NCBI GenBank assembly: GCA_015068335.1
Contig: SVKT01000001.1
Span: 1-46,531, forward strand
Length of the DNA: 46,531 nucleotides
Origin: Oscillospiraceae bacterium
GTDB lineage: Bacteria > Bacillota > Clostridia > Oscillospirales > Oscillospiraceae
Reading direction: 5' to 3'
A program made the position numbers and the translations under genes. This document shows positions 16,016 to 29,962 of the stretch, in pieces (the stretch's first letter is position 1; each line of letters starts with the position of its first letter). The notes under the pieces are model-generated. The model searched no databases, was not told the origin of the DNA, and saw only the letters and a list, made by a program, of their open reading frames with translations.

Positions 16016-16309
16016 TCAGAGGGTGTATTGCAGACAGCGGTACAGTCGGTTCTGTGCCCGCTGCAAGGTGCGCGAAACGGTGGAACGATGCACGCCCAGT
16101 TCCCGGGCGATCTGTGCCGGGGTGAGTTGCTGCTCGTAGCGCATAAAGAGGATCTGCCGCTGCCGCGCGGTCAGTTCCGCCTCTCTTGCCTGTTGCAGAT
16201 TTCGGCGCAGACGGCGCAACTGCTCCCGGTTGTCTTCCGCGTCTTCCTGCATCCAGCGCGTTAACTGGGCCCGGCTGACCAGCGGGGAGTCAAGACACGT
16301 CCTGTTCAT
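16016..16309 (-). CDS. Sigma-70 region-4-like HTH protein
   Basis: LTARQRQILFMRY...IARELGVHRSTVSRTL. Confidence 0.8.
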   Translation of the reverse strand: MNRTCLDSPLVSRAQLTRWMQEDAEDNREQLRRLRRNLQQAREAELTARQRQILFMRYEQQLTPAQIARELGVHRSTVSRTLQRAQNRLYRCLQYTL

Positions 16310-18087: not shown

Positions 18088-18128
18088 GGTGTCGAAGAAG
18101 GTCGAAATGGCTTGTGGGAGGGAATTCT

Positions 18129-18878
18129 ATGAGTTTTGGAGAACGGATCAAGACACGGCGGGAAGAACTGGATCTTTCCCGCGGGATGCTGGCGGAGCGG
18201 CTGGGGATCTCTGCATCCGCTGTCAGCAACTATGAGAACGAACTCAGTTTTCCGCAGAAAGATGTGATACTCAAACTGTTTGACTGCCTGGAAACAGATC
18301 CCAACACCCTGTTTCAGGACAGTTTTCGCGGCGGCGACAAGGTGCTGACCCGAAGTGAGCGGCAGTTGCTGGAACGGTATCGCGGGCTTTCCCCTATGGG
18401 GCGGGAGAGTGTGCGTGCGGTGGTGGAGGCAATGTGCGCCTACCGTGATGATCTGGAAAGCGGCAGAGTCGAGCAGGAGCCGCGGGTGATCCCGCTGTAT
18501 TGCAGTCCTGCGGCAGCGGGCTATGCCTCGCCGGTGTTTGGGGAGGATTTCGACTACATCACTGTCACGGATGAGGTTCCCCAGACGGCAGAACTGGCTG
18601 TCCGGATCCAGGGCGATTCTATGGCGCCGTATATTGCGGACGAGTCGGTGGTCTACGTGAATCACGATCCCCTGCGGGCGGGAGATGTGGGCATCTTCTG
18701 TGTGGATGGGGAGATGGTCTGCAAGCAGTACTACAAGGACCCGGCGGGCATCGTGTATCTGCTTTCGCTCAACCGCGCCAGGGCCGACGCGGACGTGGTA
18801 CTGCTGCCGGGCGGCAGCCGGTCGCTGGTGTGCTTCGGCAGAGTGATCCTGCACACCCTGCCGGTTGTGGGGAAATAA
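18129..18878 (+). CDS. XRE HTH plus S24 peptidase (CI/LexA-like) repressor
   Basis: N-terminal HTH (ISASAVSNYE), Ala-Gly cleavage site PAAAG, catalytic Ser in GDSM and Lys in VCKQY. Confidence 0.9.
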   Translation: MSFGERIKTRREELDLSRGMLAERLGISASAVSNYENELSFPQKDVILKLFDCLETDPNTLFQDSFRGGDKVLTRSERQLLERYRGLSPMGRESVRAVVEAMCAYRDDLESGRVEQEPRVIPLYCSPAAAGYASPVFGEDFDYITVTDEVPQTAELAVRIQGDSMAPYIADESVVYVNHDPLRAGDVGIFCVDGEMVCKQYYKDPAGIVYLLSLNRARADADVVLLPGGSRSLVCFGRVILHTLPVVGK

Positions 18879-20103: not shown

Positions 20104-20180
20104 GGACGATTAGCTCAGCTGGCTAGAGCACCTGCTTGACGTGCAGGGGGTCACAGGTTCGAGTCCTGTATCGTCCACCA
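20104..20180 (+). tRNA. tRNA-Val(GAC)
   Basis: Anticodon loop TTGACGT and CCA end; promoter TTGACA(20059)-N17-TATTCT. Confidence 0.96.
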
Positions 20181-20331
20181 ACAAACGCCCAGAGCCGTAA
20201 GGCTTTGGGCGTTTTTGCGTCTGCGCCCCCGGCGTTTGGGTTGATGAAAGCCTAAAACCCGGCGGTGCTGCCCGAAAATGTCACGGAATATTTACGATTA
20301 GATGCTATTGGGCGGAATTATTTATCGGCGT

Positions 20332-20391
20332 GTTACGAGTAAAGAAAAAGAGTGGAAAAATATTGCGGCAGGACATATTTTCTGCTAAATT
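20332..20391 (+). promoter_or_regulatory. S-layer gene 1 promoter with upstream GTTACGAGTA box
   Basis: Box 20332-20341; TTGCGG(20363)-N17-TAAATT; same layout at 23089-23149. Confidence 0.65.
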
Positions 20392-20394
20392 AGA

Positions 20395-20595
20395 TTTGCA
20401 GACTTGGCGTGAAAGCCCGAACCTGATACCGGGACTGGTGTAGGTCGACCGTTCCTGTGCCGGCTTTTCCGGCTCGATCCGGAAGAGGTGGGGCAGGGGC
20501 GCGGAGGCGGTTTTGCCAAACAAGACCGGTTCCGGGCAGGCTAGCCCCGACACGAATCCCGGAGCAGGTAAGGACGGACGCGCTGATCCTGCAAA
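20395..20595 (+). ncRNA. Putative structured 5' leader RNA, copy 1
   Basis: Homologous to 23154-23344 with compensatory changes in three stems; closed by TTTGCAG/CTGCAAA. Confidence 0.7.
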
Positions 20596-20619
20596 TACTT
20601 TTTAGGAGGATCCCCAAGT

Positions 20620-21441
20620 ATGAAGAAGTTCCTTTCTCTGGTTCTGGTTCTGGTCATGGCTCTGTCCGTGGTCACCATCAGCGCCGGCGCTGCAACCTTC
20701 TCCGACAGCGCCACCATCAAGTATCCCGAAGCCGCCGAGCTGCTGCACGGCCTGGAAATCCACAAGGGTTTCGAAGACCAGACCTATCAGCCCCAGAACC
20801 TGATGAGCCGTGGTTTCGCCTGCAAGGTCGTCGTTGAGTGCATGATCGGCGTCGAGAAGGGCCTGAAACTGCCCGCCGGCAAGTCCATCTTCAAGGACGT
20901 CACCGCCGACTATCGCTATGCTCCCTATGTCAACTATCTGGCAGATCAGGGCCTGATCGACGGTTACAGCGATGGCAAGTTCCTGCCCAAGGAAGTCATC
21001 TCTGTTGCTGGTATGCTGAAACTGGCTCTGGGCGCTCTGGGCTACAAGGCTGACTACACTGGCGACAACTGGCAGTGGAAGGTCCGCACTGACGCCAAGG
21101 CCGCCGGCCTGCTGAACGGCATCGACACTTTCGCTGCTGACAGCGCCAACCGTGAAGAGATCGAGTGGTACGCCATCCGCCGTGATGAGGGCGCTCAGGT
21201 TATGATGAACGCTCTGCTGGGCACCGTCGTCAACTATGCCGACGGCAAGGCCACTCCCGTCACCAACGCCAAGACCTCTCACTATGACATCACTGCCGGT
21301 GGTACCGCCGACGCTCTGATGCAGCTGTGCGAGAAGTCTATGCCCGACCTGAAGAAGGACGCTGGCGCTCTGGACTTCCTGGATCGTGAAGGCACTGCCT
21401 GGACCAAGGGCGACGCTACCGTCTGCTTCATCCTGAACTAA
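20620..21441 (+). CDS. Short S-layer homology (SLH) protein, paralog of 23371-25884
   Basis: Signal peptide MKKFLSLVLVLVMALSVVTISAGA; SLH motifs FKDV..GLIDGYSDGKFLP; high-expression codon style. Confidence 0.88.
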   Translation: MKKFLSLVLVLVMALSVVTISAGAATFSDSATIKYPEAAELLHGLEIHKGFEDQTYQPQNLMSRGFACKVVVECMIGVEKGLKLPAGKSIFKDVTADYRYAPYVNYLADQGLIDGYSDGKFLPKEVISVAGMLKLALGALGYKADYTGDNWQWKVRTDAKAAGLLNGIDTFAADSANREEIEWYAIRRDEGAQVMMNALLGTVVNYADGKATPVTNAKTSHYDITAGGTADALMQLCEKSMPDLKKDAGALDFLDREGTAWTKGDATVCFILN

Positions 21442-21455
21442 TCTTCCATCCATAA

Positions 21456-21490
21456 TAAAAGACTCCGGACTTCGGTCCGGAGTCTTTTTT
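21456..21490 (+). terminator. Terminator after S-layer gene 1
   Basis: AAAAGACTCCGGAC-TTCG-GTCCGGAGTCTTTTT. Confidence 0.85.
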
Positions 21491-21700
21491 GCAGCGTGCG
21501 GTATGTTTGCCTGCCGCAGATTGCGCTGCGTGCGGTTTTTGACGCGTGCGTTTGGTGAAGCGTTATTGGACAAAGGCGACAGTTTTTGGATAATGGGGCA
21601 AAAAACGGCGTGCCGCGTTGCGAAAATGGAAAATCTGTGATACAAAGAAAGAGAAGAAACGTCCGCAAGGCTGCGGACGGAGCGAGGAGGTGGAACTGCT

Positions 21701-22978
21701 ATGGGGAAAAAGACCTTTCACCGGCCCGACGGCGGAGCGATGCGCCGCCTGCTGGGGCGGAACGTGGATACCTGTGCGGGCGTGATTTTGCGTCTGGCCT
21801 GGAATATGGGCTTGTCGCTGGATGAGATGCACGGCTTGCGTTGGAACGACATCTCCTTTGAAACGGGCACGCTCCGCCTGCCCGGCCGCAGCGTTCCACT
21901 GGATGAGGACACGGCAGGCTGCCTGAAATTCCGGCAGACGCGGCAATTCCACCGCGTGTCTGAATATGTGGTGGTTTCCGACCGGCGCCGCGCGCATATG
22001 CACCGCGTTTACATATCCAGAACCGCGCAGGCGGCGCTGGACACGGAGGAAGCCCTGAAAGACGTCACGCTGAAAGACCTGCGGGAGGATTTTGTCCTCC
22101 GCCAACTGGCGCTGTACGACAGTGCGTGGGTGGCGCGCATCAGCGGTCTGACGCTGGCCACGCTGAACAGCACCTACCTGCCCTTCGCTGCGCCGGAAGC
22201 CTCCGCGGCGGTGAGAAAGCGGCCGACCCGGGTGGAAACGGCAGAATTGGAGGCGCTGGCCTGCACGGCGGGCGCACCGGCGGGTCTTGCCATCTGGCTG
22301 GCGTGGAAACTGGGTCTGGAACTGGAAGAACTGGCGGCGCTGGAATGGCGGCAGGTGGACTGGGTGGAGAGCGTGATCCGTCTGCCCGGCCGTCAGGCAC
22401 CGATGGACGACACGATGCGGGCGCTTCTGCGTCAGGCGTACGACCGACGCTCTCCCGACGCTCCGCCCCAGATCCTGCTGAGCCGGAACGCCCAAACGCC
22501 CTTTGACGTCAGTTACCTCTCCCGCGTGGTACGGATGGCGCTGATCCGGGGCGGTATGGAGCACGTGAAACTCCGCGACCTGAAACGGGAGGAGCAGCGC
22601 AGCGAGGGCGGACAGGCGATCCTGGAACACGCCGCCCGGGCGGGCCATATCAACCGGAACGAAGCGATGGCGCTGCTGCACGAGGGAAAAACGGCGGTAT
22701 ACCGCCGCCTGCGCCGGCTGACGGAGCAGGGCAAACTGGTGCGCATCGGTGCGGAGTATTATCCCGCGGGCGCCGTTGTGCCGCCGGAGGAGCAGTACGC
22801 TGTGATCCGCGCCTATCTGGAACGGGAGGGCGGCGCCTACCGTCAGGACCTGGCGGCGCTTCTCCGCATTGCGCCGCAGCAGTGCGGCTGGATCCTGCAA
22901 ACGATGGTGCAGGATGGCCGTCTGTGCCGGGAAAAGCAGTGGTACACGCTGCCGGCGCAGGAAACTATATATAGGTAA
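21701..22978 (+). CDS. Tandem degenerate tyrosine-recombinase-fold domains plus two C-terminal wHTH-like domains
   Basis: LAWNMGLSLDEMHGLRWNDI/LKDLRE and LAWKLGLELEELAALEWRQVD/LRDLKR resemble integrase box I/II; INRNEAMALL..VYRRLRRLTEQGKL and YRQDLAALL..ILQTMVQDGRL resemble wHTH; RBS GAGGAGG. Confidence 0.75.
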   Translation: MGKKTFHRPDGGAMRRLLGRNVDTCAGVILRLAWNMGLSLDEMHGLRWNDISFETGTLRLPGRSVPLDEDTAGCLKFRQTRQFHRVSEYVVVSDRRRAHMHRVYISRTAQAALDTEEALKDVTLKDLREDFVLRQLALYDSAWVARISGLTLATLNSTYLPFAAPEASAAVRKRPTRVETAELEALACTAGAPAGLAIWLAWKLGLELEELAALEWRQVDWVESVIRLPGRQAPMDDTMRALLRQAYDRRSPDAPPQILLSRNAQTPFDVSYLSRVVRMALIRGGMEHVKLRDLKREEQRSEGGQAILEHAARAGHINRNEAMALLHEGKTAVYRRLRRLTEQGKLVRIGAEYYPAGAVVPPEEQYAVIRAYLEREGGAYRQDLAALLRIAPQQCGWILQTMVQDGRLCREKQWYTLPAQETIYR

Positions 22979-23088
22979 GGCAAGAGTGTCCGACGGGCAG
23001 GGATGGTGGTCTCTGCCCGTTTTTTGTTACAAGATGTGTGACAAACATTTACACATCAATACAAATGGCAGAAAACACTTTACTCTGC

Positions 23089-23149
23089 GTTACGAGTAGG
23101 TAAAAAAGGGTAAAAACTGCTTGCAAAGGGGATTTTTTTCCGCTACATT
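23089..23149 (+). promoter_or_regulatory. S-layer gene 2 promoter with upstream GTTACGAGTA box
   Basis: Box 23089-23098; TTGCAA(23121)-N17-TACATT. Confidence 0.7.
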
Positions 23150-23153
23150 AACC

Positions 23154-23344
23154 TTGCAAACCGAGGCGTGGAATCCGGAGCCTGAATCCGTGACTGGTGT
23201 AGGCCAAACGTTCCCGGACCGGCCGTCCCGACTCAACCCGGAAAGGGTGGTACGGGAGCGAGAAATGGTTTTACTGTTTCTGGGCAGGCTAGCCCCGACA
23301 CGAATCCCGGAAACGGGTGAGGGAAGAAATGCATCTGTTTGCAA
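23154..23344 (+). ncRNA. Putative structured 5' leader RNA, copy 2
   Basis: Homologous to 20395-20595; identical 30-mer GGGCAGGCTAGCCCCGACACGAATCCCGGA; closed by TTGCAAAC/GTTTGCAA. Confidence 0.7.
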
Positions 23345-23370
23345 ATATTTTATTAGGAGGACACCTACCT

Positions 23371-25884
23371 ATGAAGAAGTTCCTTTCTCTGGTTCTGGCT
23401 CTGGTTATGGCCATGTCTCTGGTCACCATCAGCGCTGGTGCCGCGGATTTCAAGGACGAAGCTTCCATCGATCCCATCTATGCTGAAGCTGTCGACGTGA
23501 TTTCCGCCCTGGGCATCGTGAGCGGCAACAACGGCTCTTACCTGCCTCAGGACAACCTGACCCGCGGCGCTGCCGCCAAGATCCTGGCCGGCGTCAAGCT
23601 GGGCGCCGACCTGGCCGCCAAGCTGCCCAAGACCTCTGCCTTCTCTGACGTTGCTGCTGGCAGCACCTTCGCTGGCTACATCAGCTACCTGAAGGACGAG
23701 GGCATCGTCGGCGGTTACGGCGACGGCACCTTCGGCCCCTCCAACAAGCTGACCGGCGACGCCTTCCTGAAGCAGGTTCTGGGCGTCCTGGGCTACAAGG
23801 CTGACGTTGAGGGCTACAATGTTACCGGTTGGCAGGTCTCCGTCGCTATCGACGCCCTGAACGCTGGTCTGCTGGAAGGTATGGAGGAGAATTTCAACTC
23901 CGCCAACCTGATCACCCGTGAGCAGGCTGCTCAGATCATCCTGAACGCCCTGCAGGCTGATATGGTCTACTATCCCACTCAGTCCAGCATCCAGATCGGT
24001 GACATCACCATCAACAACAGTTCCGAGGCTAAGAAGGTTGAGAACGCTGCTACCGCCGACTATGACAAGACTGTCATCAGCACCGACGGCAATGGCGATC
24101 CCGTCTATCGCACCAACACTGTTCAGCAGCTGTGCGAGAAGGCCTTCCCCACCCTGAAGAAGGTCGACAACGTGACCGACGATATGGCTCGTCCCGCTAC
24201 CCAGTGGAACTACAAGGGCCAGTCCCTGGTTCTGGCTGTCGATAACGCCGAGATGACCTATGTTGCTTCTCCCAAGTACAAGGACGTCTATGCTGTCCTG
24301 GGCCTGACCGACAAGGAAGTGCCCTGGGTTGCTTATGAGGACGGCGTTGTTTATTCTAACGCCAACTGGAACAACGGCTATGGCTACAACGGCAAGTTGA
24401 CCGTTGATGGCACCTCCAACATGGTCAACGCCAACCGTCGCTGCGCTTACGAGATCTACTATGATTCCACCAAGGCCACTCCCGTGACCGCCATTATGGT
24501 GAACGAGTATGTCGGTAAGGTTTCTGCCACCTCCGGTTCCGGCGATGCCAGAAAGATCACCATCGTTCCTATGGACAATGCTACCGAGAGCTTCCCCGAC
24601 GGCGTGTCCTCTGTTGAGTTCACCACCACCGAGTACGCTGTGGACGACGTCGTTGTCTTCACCTACTCCTATGCTACCTCCAAGGTTCAGACCGTGAAGA
24701 TCGCCGAGTACCTGACCGGTGAGATCACCCGCGTTGAGACTCTGAGCGGCCGTGCCGACATCTTCGTTGACGATGTCAAGGTCAGCTACGCTTGGGGTAC
24801 TGCCGACGGCAACTGCGACCTGTTCAACAAGAGCGGCCTGTCCATCGGCGACACCGTGAACGTCTATCTGGACAGCAACAGCTACTACCTGTACGTTGAA
24901 GAGGTCGAGGCCGTTGCTTCCGACAAGTTCGCTTACGTCCTGGATGCTGCCGATGAGGCTGCTCCTCTGTTCGGCACTGCTAAGCACTTCGCTCAGCTGC
25001 TGATGACCGACGGCACCATCGAGACCGTTGAGACCGACGAACTGTACACCGCTGAGAAGTATGACTTCGTGACCTACTCCATCGATGAGGACGGTCTGTA
25101 TGTCCTGGACGACGCTGACAACAACAACGTTAACGACACTGTCTCCGTTGACATCAACGGCACGATCTATGCCACCATCGGTGGTTCCGTGACCCTGAGC
25201 AGCAGCACCATCTTCGTTGTGAAGACCGAGGTTGACGGCAAGGCCGTGTACACCTCCTATCTGGGCCACAAGAACGTTCCCAAGATGGACGGCACCACCT
25301 ATGCTGACGCTGTCAAGGCCAAGAGCACTGACACCGCTGTCGCTTATGTCTTCGTCGACGCTACCGCCAACGGCTTCAACCTGAGCACCACCGCTGACAA
25401 GGTTGACTACCTGTATATCAACACCACCGACTCCGGCCGCGAGTATGCCGATGCCAACAACACCTGGTATCAGTACAACGCTGTCGTGAACGGCGAGGTT
25501 GAGACCATTATGGTCGACGCTTCCTGCAAGGCCGCTCTGAGCGCTCGCGCCAAGCTCATCTTCTCCGCCTACAAGGTCAACGACGAGGGCTTCTACTTCG
25601 TCGAGGCTGGCGATGTCGTGACTCCCACCGAGGACTACATCAACGTCGCTAACGGCCAGGGTCTGAATTACGTTGACGGCCTGCTGCTGGCTGGCATCAA
25701 CAAGCCCGAGACCACCGCTGCCTACGAAATGGACGAGGATGTTGTCATCATCTACAACGACAGCAACGCTGTCTACCTGTGGACTGAGGCCAACCTGAAG
25801 AAGGATACCAACGATTACAGCTGGCTGTACGATATCGACGGCGACGCCGACATCGACTTCGTGGTTATCCAGAAGATGGCCTAA
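23371..25884 (+). CDS. Major S-layer protein (N-terminal SLH repeats)
   Basis: Start reassigned to MKKFLSLVLALVMAMSLVTISAGA with RBS AGGAGG; SLH motifs LTRGAAAKI and FSDV..GIVGGYGDGTFGP; acidic Thr/Val/Asp-rich body; strong codon bias. Confidence 0.92.
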   Translation: MKKFLSLVLALVMAMSLVTISAGAADFKDEASIDPIYAEAVDVISALGIVSGNNGSYLPQDNLTRGAAAKILAGVKLGADLAAKLPKTSAFSDVAAGSTFAGYISYLKDEGIVGGYGDGTFGPSNKLTGDAFLKQVLGVLGYKADVEGYNVTGWQVSVAIDALNAGLLEGMEENFNSANLITREQAAQIILNALQADMVYYPTQSSIQIGDITINNSSEAKKVENAATADYDKTVISTDGNGDPVYRTNTVQQLCEKAFPTLKKVDNVTDDMARPATQWNYKGQSLVLAVDNAEMTYVASPKYKDVYAVLGLTDKEVPWVAYEDGVVYSNANWNNGYGYNGKLTVDGTSNMVNANRRCAYEIYYDSTKATPVTAIMVNEYVGKVSATSGSGDARKITIVPMDNATESFPDGVSSVEFTTTEYAVDDVVVFTYSYATSKVQTVKIAEYLTGEITRVETLSGRADIFVDDVKVSYAWGTADGNCDLFNKSGLSIGDTVNVYLDSNSYYLYVEEVEAVASDKFAYVLDAADEAAPLFGTAKHFAQLLMTDGTIETVETDELYTAEKYDFVTYSIDEDGLYVLDDADNNNVNDTVSVDINGTIYATIGGSVTLSSSTIFVVKTEVDGKAVYTSYLGHKNVPKMDGTTYADAVKAKSTDTAVAYVFVDATANGFNLSTTADKVDYLYINTTDSGREYADANNTWYQYNAVVNGEVETIMVDASCKAALSARAKLIFSAYKVNDEGFYFVEAGDVVTPTEDYINVANGQGLNYVDGLLLAGINKPETTAAYEMDEDVVIIYNDSNAVYLWTEANLKKDTNDYSWLYDIDGDADIDFVVIQKMA

Positions 25885-26728: not shown

Positions 26729-26750
26729 TGGTGCAAAGGAGGCGGTGAAA

Positions 26751-28205
26751 ATGACCGGTAAGGAAATCGAGAGTCGTTCCGGTGTGGCAAGAGCCAACAT
26801 CCGCTATTACGAGGCGGAGGGGCTGCTGCATCCTGCGCGGGAGAAAAACGGATACCGCGATTACAGCGAAGCCGATCTGGAAATTCTGGAAAAAATTAAA
26901 TTGCTGCGCCGGCTGGGCGTGACCATCGAGGAACTGAAAGCCCTCTGCGCCGGGAAGGCCGAACTGGGCCCGGTGCTGGACCGGCGGCTGCGGGAATTGC
27001 AGAGTGAGCGGGAAACGATGGAACGGGTGGAGCAGGTCTGCGGAGAACTGCGTGCCTCCGGCGAGACCTTTGCCACTCTGGATGCACCCAAGTATCTGAA
27101 AGCGCTGGACGAGGGGCCTTTGACGGCGCCCATCCTGCCGGAGCGCGACAAACTGCCGGCGGTATACAGTCCGTGGCGGCGCTTCTTTGCCCGCAGTTTC
27201 GATGAACTGCTGTGGGGCATTCTTCTGGCGCTGATTTTTTGCCTTGCGGGGAAAAATCCCAATCTGGTGGAGGAACGGGTCGGCGTGCTGTGGACCATTA
27301 TGGCTGTGCTGCTGTGCTTTGCACTGGAACCACTGCTGATCTCCCTGACCGGTACCACCCCGGGTAAGGCTCTGCTGGGGATGCGTCTTGCCGCGCCGGA
27401 GGGCAGAAAACTGACCCTTTCCGAGGCGTACAGCCGTCATTTTTGTATGCTGTGGTACGGCGAGGGCTTCTTCATCCCCATCTGGGGTTTGATCCAACTG
27501 TGGCGCAGCGCCAAGCGGGGCTGGAACGAGGAGCCCCAGCCCTGGGACGCCGAGGTGGCCTACATCGCGCCGCCCTTTGAGGGAAAGTTCGTGGCTTTTA
27601 TGGCCGCCGCGGCCGCTGTGCTGCTGGTGAGCAGCGAGGCGGTGAACAGCGCCTCCCAACTGCCGCCCAACCGGGGCGACCTGACCCTGACGGAGTTTGT
27701 GGAGAACCACAACCGGCAGAACGAGTATCTGGGTCTGCACGTCCGCAGTTATCTGGACGCCGAGGGCCGGTGGCAGGAACTTCCGGAGCCGGAGAACAGC
27801 ACCACCATTACCATTGACTTCTCCAAGCCCTGGGAGGAGGCGAAGGTGTACCACTACACCGTGGAGGATGGCCGCATCACCGCCATCACGATGGAGGCGG
27901 AACTGGAAAATCAATTCGACTGGATCACACCGCCCATCAGTACGGCGGCGGAACTGATCCCCTCCTTCGTTTGGGCGCAGGAGGAGGCGCCTTTCTGGTC
28001 TTTCAGCCGCAGGCGGCTGCTGACCGAGTTGTCCCGCGCCGACTGGGCGGAAGGCTTCACCATTCACGATTCCGGTGTGGTCATTCGCGGCAAGGTGGAA
28101 ATGGAGGGCTACAACTTCGGAAACGGTTGGGACTGGGCCATCCCCGACGACACCCGCACAGAAAATAAAATCGCCTTCCATTTTTCCGTAGAATTGGAAG
28201 AATGA
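26751..28205 (+). CDS. MerR-family HTH fused to an RDD membrane domain and a C-terminal soluble domain
   Basis: NIRYYEAEGLLHPAREKNGYRDY; RDD motifs PWRRFFARSFD and GTTPGKALLGMRL. Confidence 0.85.
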   Translation: MTGKEIESRSGVARANIRYYEAEGLLHPAREKNGYRDYSEADLEILEKIKLLRRLGVTIEELKALCAGKAELGPVLDRRLRELQSERETMERVEQVCGELRASGETFATLDAPKYLKALDEGPLTAPILPERDKLPAVYSPWRRFFARSFDELLWGILLALIFCLAGKNPNLVEERVGVLWTIMAVLLCFALEPLLISLTGTTPGKALLGMRLAAPEGRKLTLSEAYSRHFCMLWYGEGFFIPIWGLIQLWRSAKRGWNEEPQPWDAEVAYIAPPFEGKFVAFMAAAAAVLLVSSEAVNSASQLPPNRGDLTLTEFVENHNRQNEYLGLHVRSYLDAEGRWQELPEPENSTTITIDFSKPWEEAKVYHYTVEDGRITAITMEAELENQFDWITPPISTAAELIPSFVWAQEEAPFWSFSRRRLLTELSRADWAEGFTIHDSGVVIRGKVEMEGYNFGNGWDWAIPDDTRTENKIAFHFSVELEE

Positions 28206-28303: not shown

Positions 28304-28323
28304 CGCTTTACTTTGTTAAAATA
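28304..28323. promoter_or_regulatory. HisR-type operator upstream of the his operon
   Basis: CGCTTTA-N6-TAAAATA resembles the Bacillota HisR palindrome YACTTTA-N6-TAAAGTR. Confidence 0.55.
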
Positions 28324-28384
28324 CAGGGGTAGAATAAGGTTATCATTACACCCGGGCGCAGTGCGCCTGCCAGGAGGGTTTCCT

Positions 28385-29962
28385 ATGGAACTGGATCTGA
28401 ACATTTTGAAACCGCAGGAGCGGATCTCACTGCAATTGCGGATGCTGTATGAAAAGGCGGGTTTCCGCCAGTACCATATGGGGCGGTTTGAGGAATACGG
28501 CCTCTATCAGGACAATCGCCGTTTCCTCTCCTCCGAGCAGGTCATCACCTTCACTGATCTGGACGGCCGCCTGCTGGCGCTGAAACCGGACGTGACCCTC
28601 TCCATCGCGAAAAACGCGCAGGTGGAGGAGGGAGGCTGCGGCCGCTTCTACTATCTGGAAAATGTTTACCGCCCCAGTCAGGAGAGCCACACCTTCCGGG
28701 AGATCAGCCAGATGGGTCTGGAATGCATCGGCGCGGTGGACGACGCCGTAACGGCGCAGGCCGTGACGCTGGCCATCGAGAGTCTTGCCTTGACGGGTCG
28801 GGACTATATGCTGGAAATCAGCCATATGGGCTTCGTCACCGGTCTCTTTGACGCCGTGGGCGCCCAGAGCGCCATCCGCCCCAAACTGCTTTCCTGCATC
28901 CGCAACAAAAACCGCCACGAACTGCAAAAGTGCGCGGCGGAGGCGGGGCTGTCCCGTCAGGGGACGGACGCCCTCTGTTCTCTGGGCAAACTCTCCGGCG
29001 CGTGGGAGACGGTTCTGGCCGCGGCGGAGCCGCTGGCCCTGAATGCCGCGATGGGCGCGGCACTGGAAGAACTGCGTGCCCTGTGCCAGACCCTTGCTGC
29101 GGAGGGAAAGGCGGAGCATCTGCGTCTGGATCTCTCTTTGGCAGGCGATATGGATTATTACAACGGCCTTGTGATGCAGGGCTATCTGGCAGGTCTTCCC
29201 CGCGCCGTGCTGAAAGGCGGTCGCTACGACCCGATGGCGGAGCAGTTCCGCCGCGGCGCCAAGGCCATCGGCTATGCGCTGTATCTGGATGAACTGGCCC
29301 GTATGGACGGCAGCGAAGCCCCTGCGGCAGAAAAGGTAATGCTGAACGTGGCGCTGCCCAAGGGCCGCCTGGGCGATAAGGTCTATAACCTGCTCTCCGG
29401 CGTGGGTTACGGCTGCCCGGAAAATTACAACGAGACCCGCAAACTGGTGGTGGAGAACCCGGAGGCGGGCATTCGATATTTCCTCGTCAAGCCCAGCGAC
29501 GTTGCCATCTACGTGGAGCACGGCGCGGCGGACATCGGCATCGTGGGCAAGGACATTCTGGAAGAATCCGGCGCCGATGTCTACGAACTGATGGACACCG
29601 GCCTCGGCAAGTGCCGGATGTGCGTGGCCGGACACAAGGATTTTGTGGACGATCCCAGCCGCACCCTGCGGGTGGCCACCAAGTTTGTCCACATTGCAAA
29701 GGACTATTACGCCGCACAGGGGCGCGACATCGACATCATCAAACTCAACGGATCCATCGAACTGGCGCCCATTCTGGGCCTGTCCGACGTGATCGTGGAC
29801 ATTGTGGAGACCGGAACGACCCTGAAGGAGAACGATCTGGCGGTGCTGACGGAGTTCATGCCCATCTCCGCCCGCTTCATCTCCAACCGGGCCAGTTACC
29901 AGTTCAAGCGCCGTGAGATCGACACCCTGCTGGCCAAACTGACGGAGGTGACCGGAGTATGA
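28385..29962 (+). CDS. hisZG: Fused ATP phosphoribosyltransferase: regulatory subunit HisZ plus short-form HisG
   Basis: LALKPDVTLSIA, REISQMGLE and GGRYD (HisZ), then in frame MLNVALPKGRL, DIGIVGKD and DIVETGTTL (HisG). Confidence 0.92.
   Translation: MELDLNILKPQERISLQLRMLYEKAGFRQYHMGRFEEYGLYQDNRRFLSSEQVITFTDLDGRLLALKPDVTLSIAKNAQVEEGGCGRFYYLENVYRPSQESHTFREISQMGLECIGAVDDAVTAQAVTLAIESLALTGRDYMLEISHMGFVTGLFDAVGAQSAIRPKLLSCIRNKNRHELQKCAAEAGLSRQGTDALCSLGKLSGAWETVLAAAEPLALNAAMGAALEELRALCQTLAAEGKAEHLRLDLSLAGDMDYYNGLVMQGYLAGLPRAVLKGGRYDPMAEQFRRGAKAIGYALYLDELARMDGSEAPAAEKVMLNVALPKGRLGDKVYNLLSGVGYGCPENYNETRKLVVENPEAGIRYFLVKPSDVAIYVEHGAADIGIVGKDILEESGADVYELMDTGLGKCRMCVAGHKDFVDDPSRTLRVATKFVHIAKDYYAAQGRDIDIIKLNGSIELAPILGLSDVIVDIVETGTTLKENDLAVLTEFMPISARFISNRASYQFKRREIDTLLAKLTEVTGV

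Follow-up and report, generated by a model that had tools for sequence, protein, structure and literature searches.

Switching of surface (S-) layer genes by DNA inversion and recombinases is known from Lactobacillus slpA/B, Campylobacter fetus sap and C. difficile cwpV/RecV. The system described here resembles these switches in that a genome holds several S-layer genes with a gene related to recombinases close by, but its recombinase fold looks inactive and no inversion was seen. That a recombinase fold can be turned into a regulator is already known: MrpR (YopR, from the Bacillus phage SPbeta) and SroF (phi3T) are dead recombinase folds working as sequence-specific prophage repressors, both of them monomers with one core-binding and one catalytic domain (PMC10516654; 10.1101/2025.11.27.690993). 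Our subject is a protein encoded on 46,531 nucleotides from an Oscillospiraceae bacterium (GCA_015068335.1, contig SVKT01000001.1, positions 1 to 46,531; this whole stretch is called the window). It shares with MrpR and SroF the recombinase fold with lost catalytic residues (structural match Z 12.8-13.4), and the MrpR table gives a Ser at the first Arg site, as in the window protein. It differs from both in combining two catalytic folds with two winged helices and no core-binding domain, and in neighbouring host SLH genes instead of a prophage repressor operon. The layout of MrpR and SroF, core-binding plus catalytic domain, occurs among the relatives only in the distant L094 relative, and since the window protein is structurally closer to Xer proteins, an origin separate from MrpR is likely.

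New, then, are the pairing with host S-layer genes and the architecture; the literature covered, largely outside subscription journals, held no description of the architecture or role of this family. We propose, with a probability of roughly 0.55, that the protein (hereafter the regulator) is a dedicated DNA-binding activator or co-activator of the adjacent S-layer promoter, whereby we infer both the binding and the direction of regulation. Common gut Oscillospiraceae would then offer a host-gene case of such a regulator, new in its architecture and with its target and operator named, through which one can test directly how these bacteria govern, and perhaps alternate, an S-layer that is phage receptor and host-facing surface at once; annotations of its homologs as integrases, AbiEi antitoxins or AlkZ glycosylases would be corrected as well.

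Fold and domain layout

The regulator gene encodes 425 aa in the order CAT1-CAT2-wH1-wH2 (Table 1). The first-pass annotation had read the chain as two integrase-like catalytic domains without an N-terminal core-binding domain, followed by two wHTH-like repeats, and every part of this layout was recovered. Pfam Phage_integrase matches in two stretches (E=1.8e-8, above the curated cut-off), the self-alignment gives 29% identity of CAT1 to CAT2 over 105 aa (E=1e-11), and the AlphaFold model (mean pLDDT 89.1, pTM 0.66; input of 99 homologs) finds its structural match in XerA (Z 18.4, rmsd 3.1, 167 aligned residues; model 2-171 versus chain 98-279), which upholds the integrase fold on the predicted structure. 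Xer, Cre and Int catalytic domains match the model from residue 2 on; because the XerA match begins there, the regulator has no core-binding domain in front. Its likeness to Xer, Cre and Int (XerA 5HXY, 4A8E; XerD 1A0P) covers the catalytic fold, sequence similarity, the second Arg and the Glu of box I, whereas the regulator lacks most catalytic residues as well as the Lys hairpin and the core-binding domain, and the NCBIfam Xer models all score far under their cut-off. The relative placing of the domains in the model is tentative, given the pTM of 0.66 and the poorly predicted linker 167-175, and the single-chain pseudo-dimer suggested in the first-pass annotation is a putative arrangement.

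Residues 305-413 give weak winged-helix matches in Pfam, and the C-terminal 120 residues of the model match tandem winged helices. When the pair was folded alone, the mRNA-binding winged helices of SelB came out as nearest (Z 11.9, rmsd 4.5, 121 aligned; Z 11.9-12.3 for 1WSU and 2UWM); the tandem arrangement is alike, but identity is 14% and the rmsd over 4.

The two-domain form without N-terminal extension is found in 87 of 97 long representatives, and six have one domain. Variant architectures (P0139, P0149, P0198, P0154, P0236, P0212) have a third pseudo-catalytic domain, an extended N-terminus or numerous winged-helix repeats. A single pseudo-catalytic domain with N-terminal extension lies directly before an S-layer gene at L094:1120-2004; this form has nine homologs, one of them fused to a HU/IHF domain. 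It is not called ancestral here, as the domain tree of 65 rows, with half of its inner branches (31 of 62) open, cannot order the architectures.

Loss of the catalytic residues and selection

Homologs were found at 36-85% identity (116, mostly of about 420 aa), and the 99 near-full-length ones were aligned. The motifs quoted in the first-pass annotation for domain 1 could be placed at residues 37-42 (GLSLDE), 125-129 (KDLRE), 148-150 (SGL) and 156-159 (NSTY), those for domain 2 at 205-210 (GLELEE) and 292-296 (RDLKR). Ser in domain 1 and Glu in domain 2 stand for the first catalytic Arg in the window protein; Arg occurs at this site in none of the 99 homologs in domain 1 and in seven in domain 2, while the Arg beside it is kept in 93. 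The hairpin of the catalytic Lys is 5-6 residues shorter than in Xer proteins, and its Lys is found in 0/99 (domain 1) and 2/99 (domain 2). The His of His-x-x-Arg is absent from all 99 in both domains; the second catalytic Arg (R128) is present in 99/99 in domain 1 and in 38/99 in domain 2. At the His/Trp site of box II, 96 of 99 carry Val, Ile, Leu or Met in domain 1, and domain 2 stops before box II. Y159 of the window copy aligns with the Xer nucleophile, a site occupied by Phe in 85/99 and by Tyr in 11/99 homologs. Counted over five sites of domain 1 (Arg, His, Arg, His/Trp, Tyr), 88 of the 99 retain one and 11 retain two, so that the full catalytic set, which the first-pass annotation had named as the thing to look for in homologs, is kept by none.

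A profile search of distant representatives reached 308 clusters at E <1e-30. Among 145 complete domain-1-like matches, taken from the best 145 listed together with 10 single-domain relatives, the His of HxxR is missing throughout, and Trp stands at the His/Trp site in a single case. The catalytic loss is thus, on these alignments, a family-wide trait. Conserved in both domains, on the other hand, is a Ser-Arg-x-x-Arg helix at what we take to be the DNA-reading helix position of recombinases; the likely recognition helix of domain 1 was assigned on the assumption that it corresponds to helix J of Cre and XerD.

Against L001, a related locus, the regulator gene has dN 0.085 and dS 0.425 (dN/dS 0.20), and the median dN/dS over 514 related pairs, which are non-independent, is 0.31. 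The selection check proposed earlier therefore speaks for purifying selection, and since the loss of residues in the whole family goes along with it, the regulator is not a decaying copy. A functionless integrase remnant has a next to negligible probability: a few split or truncated copies (L026, L052, L277) and a more degenerate paralog without box II (G000:C137) fit it, but the 116 homologs are mostly equal in length, the clusters number 308 and the gene context is fixed, which had already largely refuted this reading.

Distribution and pairing with S-layer genes

The scan of species genomes yielded 78 loci (the best 80 of 98 matches, close kin), which are titled Oscillospiraceae, Oscillibacter, Dysosmobacter or higher taxa; with two second copies and the window they form a set of 81 cassettes. 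In 62 of these the next gene is an SLH S-layer gene starting on the same strand, in 19 the contig ends first, and in none does another gene follow; 15 of the 19 cut cassettes end inside a recognisable S-layer leader. The family is present in 86 of 151 genomes of the window's genus and matches in 18 of 401 genomes of the family (four of these being ordinary-integrase-like), with 0 of 398 other genomes sampled from the class. The S-layer family is far wider, with 211 of the 401 genomes. Besides L094, seven further distant members precede an S-layer gene; none follows the distant members L102, L103, L104 and L106, and in L201 and L204 (genus sample) the regulator lies after an S-layer-like ORF instead of before an S-layer gene.

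The one-contig genome G871 has four regulators that share 43-49% identity, every one of them placed before an S-layer gene of its own, and stand-alone S-layer genes besides. In G000 (78% complete) all three S-layer-family matches adjoin a regulator, and the degenerate C137 paralog also precedes an S-layer gene. Searches of 50,697 phage and 72,556 plasmid records gave no match. Three related viral-collection contigs (L290-L292) carry the cassette behind a primase-like ORF; the S-layer gene is still present on two and the third is cut off. This suggests that cassettes can also move. Three irregular loci could be assembly errors: an S-layer ORF running into the C-terminal half of the regulator (L280:306-3606), a split S-layer gene behind an intact regulator (L266, in G871) and a split regulator before an intact S-layer gene (L277).

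The S-layer promoter and its two boxes

Cassette S-layer promoters share a sigma-A-like -35/-10 pair with two conserved boxes upstream: the proximal box ends about 14 bp before the -35, the distal box lies 43-44 bp further upstream, and these positions are conserved in 37 dereplicated cassette promoters. As a control, 69 S-layer loci were fetched and 56 kept as stand-alone, leaving out 10 with an integrase-like ORF upstream (seven cassettes, three ordinary integrases) and three short of flank. At the proximal position TGTTAC-N5-TGTTAC, with at least 10 of 12 matches, occurs in 35 of the 56 stand-alone loci versus 2 of 45 dereplicated cassettes, a contrast inflated by the repeat score having been included in picking the stand-alone promoters and not the cassettes. 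Within six genomes the cassette repeat score is lower than the stand-alone one in five and tied in one. The distal half-site is found in 27/45 cassettes versus 0/37 stand-alone loci with a clear repeat. Several cassettes, including two on viral-collection contigs, have a near-canonical proximal repeat and no distal box.

In C. difficile, WalR has the consensus TGTWAH-N5-TGTWAH and affects S-layer genes (PMC9210968), and the stand-alone repeat fits the consensus given there. We infer from this likeness an OmpR-type binder of the stand-alone repeat; in four genomes even the top YycF/WalR match stays under the curated cut-off, and the best YycF-like response regulator candidate lies at G000:C21:18068-18757. 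Cassettes differ from this kind of WalR/OmpR envelope control by a degenerate repeat and a second box. Because stand-alone S-layer promoters carry the repeat at the same place, the proximal site is not the regulator's by origin, and the cassettes go with a rewired version of a common S-layer promoter. Two earlier candidates, the proximal box as the regulator's own site and its likeness to Xer dif arms, were dropped on the stand-alone control. Other genes behind TGTTAC-N5-TGTTAC matches gave no clear WalR regulon, the pattern being no commoner genome-wide than its control.

A separate observation concerns S-layer-family genes that lack the promoter repeat: in 10 of 21, versus 0 of 35 with the repeat, G[TG]CTACC is present upstream in two to five copies (within the upstream 450 bp; L130, L134, L137, L143, L151, L152, L154, L160, L164, L168, L180). 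L156 and L164 have a divergent, intact-looking integrase, and in several of these genomes the S-layer genes are clustered and point both ways; this may be a shufflon-like S-layer system of a separate kind.

For the activator reading we envisage that the pseudo-catalytic domains, with their conserved recognition helices, and the winged helices would recognise the distal box together with the altered proximal one, which is centred about 61 bp upstream of the start site, where stand-alone genes have the WalR-type repeat. The weakened repeat would make S-layer transcription dependent on the private regulator, which might either help an OmpR-type response regulator to bind or replace it. A repressor or anti-activator, sitting on the boxes to block response regulator or polymerase and thereby silencing spare S-layer copies, is in our view unlikely. 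It would agree with the characterised dead-recombinase regulators MrpR and SroF, which repress, and with the stand-alone S-layer gene with canonical repeat that cassette genomes often hold as a possible default coat; yet the boxes lie upstream of the -35 and not over the core promoter, a repressed promoter has no reason to lose its activator repeat, and in G000 every S-layer-family match adjoins a regulator. It should be noted that activation is favoured over repression solely by the position of the sites and the weakened repeat.

A box before the regulator gene and its co-variation

With a matrix trained on 33 distal boxes, and with success defined as beating its own shuffles, an inverted distal-type box was found 30-60 bp before the regulator start in 56 of 78 dereplicated starts versus 5 of 276 other gene starts at an equal threshold. 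Within a cassette this own-start box and the distal copy agree at 10.26 of 17 positions, as compared to 7.7 between different clades (15 clades; 0 of 20,000 permutations), and the effect holds over seven coarser clades (p=0.009). It sits at flank and inner positions, not at the centre, and no own-cassette effect was obtained for the proximal box (p=0.99). Own exceeds cross similarity in 9 of 11 same-genome paralog pairs, amounting to about three independent contrasts. Over the 81 cassettes, 60 have both boxes, 12 neither and nine are discordant, which with five independent pairs is not significant. Dedicated autoregulated transcription factors usually show themselves by such a box in front of their own gene and of its neighbour, with the two copies changing together. 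The box at the regulator's own start would accordingly bring about autoregulation, although its place 30-60 bp before the start codon is also a usual one for auto-repression and hence counts in favour of the repressor.

The half-site TGTTAY and the 11-bp phasing are common to the distal, own-start and proximal boxes and the WalR-type repeat, so that one response regulator could bind all three. It is improbable, in our estimation, that all boxes are OmpR/WalR-type response regulator sites, the pseudo-integrase being a non-specific bending or looping partner or acting elsewhere. The shared half-site and phasing, the WalR consensus and effects in C. difficile (PMC9210968) and the HU/IHF fusion of one relative would suit it. 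Position 16, on the contrary, is a purine in 51/63 own-start and 46/61 distal boxes and T in 33/36 stand-alone repeats, and one shared regulator would not explain boxes that co-vary cassette by cassette, also between paralogs of the same genome.

A bolder picture is one in which each S-layer paralog has a private dead-recombinase regulator with its own box flavour and feedback, and coats are switched heritably by transcription alone; this is a tentative extension, which we would sooner doubt than assert. Were it true, up to four or five cassettes would form a rearrangement-free S-layer switch for escaping phages or antibodies.

The S-layer leader

S-layer 5' leaders form a long rod with an apical loop holding a self-complementary hexamer, GCTAGC (88) or GCATGC (10). 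The leader in the window folds well (z -3.86) and exposes its palindromic loop; Rfam gave no match for the window leaders or eight related loci. Independently of the regulator, the leader may represent a so far undescribed cis-RNA, perhaps a kissing loop. In same-genome paralog cassettes (8-9 pairs, one clade contrast; ungapped values) the first 40 leader bases are 98% identical, the regulators 46% and the upstream DNA 33%. Nine such pairs of S-layer loci, L041/L064, L056/L070, L013/L068 and six more, show a homogenisation that sets in at the transcription start and extends into the coding region, which suggests gene conversion.

The first-pass annotation had left open whether DNA or the leader RNA is bound. 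The DNA branch, and with it the regulator role proposed there, is supported by the genomic context (S-layer neighbour, boxes, co-variation); the RNA branch has become less likely, as 10 of 46 S-layer loci in genomes lacking a regulator match also have the palindromic hairpin and as near-identical leaders stand beside regulators sharing 46%. That the winged-helix pair binds the leader hairpin, as SelB binds SECIS, and controls stability or translation is very unlikely: SelB is its closest structural match and the leader has a strong structure whose apical loop is conserved, but single winged helices of DNA binders reach Z 9-10 in the same search, and the DNA boxes upstream of the promoter would be left unexplained.

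The homogenised loci also bear on a role in recombination, in which the inverted boxes would be recombination or synapsis sites for an accessory protein or residual recombinase, or the protein would promote exchange between S-layer loci. Inverted box copies do flank the regulator gene, the window copy keeps R128 and Y159, and the viral-collection contigs place the cassette beside primase-like genes. Even so we give this reading little likelihood: the first Arg, the Lys hairpin and both His sites are gone and the Tyr is mostly Phe, none of the 78 loci is an inverted cassette, and the box centres lack the co-variation expected of a crossover region. Assembled contigs from four DNA runs, in which rare variants are lost, contained no well-supported inversion joint; joints linking the two SLH genes were left uncounted, their sides being short and 85% alike.

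The locus in the window

Table 1. Features of the regulator locus (window positions, forward strand)
Feature	Position	Strand	Basis
Second promoter with window-type boxes: distal 20279-20297, proximal 20321-20342, -35 20363, -10 20386	20279..20391	+	sequence
Second leader copy, palindrome at 20539-20546	20396..20619	+	sequence
Short SLH-only gene, 273 aa, possible second target	20620..21441	+	domain matches; L001 equal length, 72.5% identical
Terminator-like hairpin after short SLH gene	21457..21488	+	sequence
Weak candidate sigma-A promoter for the regulator gene (spacer of 17 bp; L001 has a similar one)	21618..21646	+	consensus match only
Regulator gene, CAT1-CAT2-wH1-wH2	21701..22978	+	ORF, Pfam, AlphaFold, structure match
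Pseudo-catalytic domain 1, residues 8-165	21722..22195	+	motif positions, structure match, homolog alignment
Ser at first Arg site, domain 1	21809-21826	+	sequence, homolog alignment
Short hairpin without Lys, domain 1	21878-21898	+	alignment versus Xer proteins
Likely recognition helix, domain 1	22001-22030	+	from recombinase fold
R128 kept, domain 1	22073-22087	+	homolog alignment
Leu at His/Trp site, domain 1	22142-22150	+	homolog alignment
Y159, domain 1	22175-22177	+	alignment versus Xer nucleophile
Pseudo-catalytic domain 2, residues 178-300, without box II and Tyr	22232..22600	+	alignments
Two winged helices, residues 301-418	22601..22954	+	Pfam, structure match
Terminator-like hairpin and T-run after regulator gene	22995..23024	+	sequence
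Distal array of TGTWAC-like half-sites, S-layer promoter	23025..23053	+	common to four promoters, window and L001
Proximal box, shifted upstream by about one helical turn relative to other cassettes	23079..23103	+	promoter alignment
Candidate sigma-A promoter of S-layer gene, -35 at 23121, -10 at 23144	23121..23149	+	layout as in nearly all cassettes
Structured 5' leader, GGCTAGCC palindrome at 23287-23294	23154..23370	+	folding z -3.86
SLH S-layer protein gene, 837 aa, likely target	23371..25884	+	domain matches

In the window the regulator gene sits between two SLH genes with related leaders (Table 1). Compared to the family, this copy and L001 have altered recognition helices; neither has the own-start box, both score low against the distal box of the family, and the strongest evidence for the regulator therefore comes from relatives. 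Instead, a window-type half-site array, one helical turn further upstream, precedes both flanking SLH genes in the window and in L001, and in this sub-branch one regulator may serve both flanking SLH promoters. As a metagenome scan with the window sub-branch gave one weak locus, the window-type boxes are known from four promoters in two genomes, and the regulator role of the window copy would be carried over from the family and these four promoters.

The SLH-only gene has a full S-layer promoter and leader of its own and lies after tRNA-Val (20104-20180). Elsewhere in the window, a small sigma-70 region 4 protein (16016-16309), an HTH and S24 peptidase repressor (18114-18878) and a MerR-RDD fusion (26745-28205) were observed, and one ORF (28313-29962) unites tRNA-synthetase-His-like (HisZ-type) and HisG domains in a fused ATP phosphoribosyltransferase.
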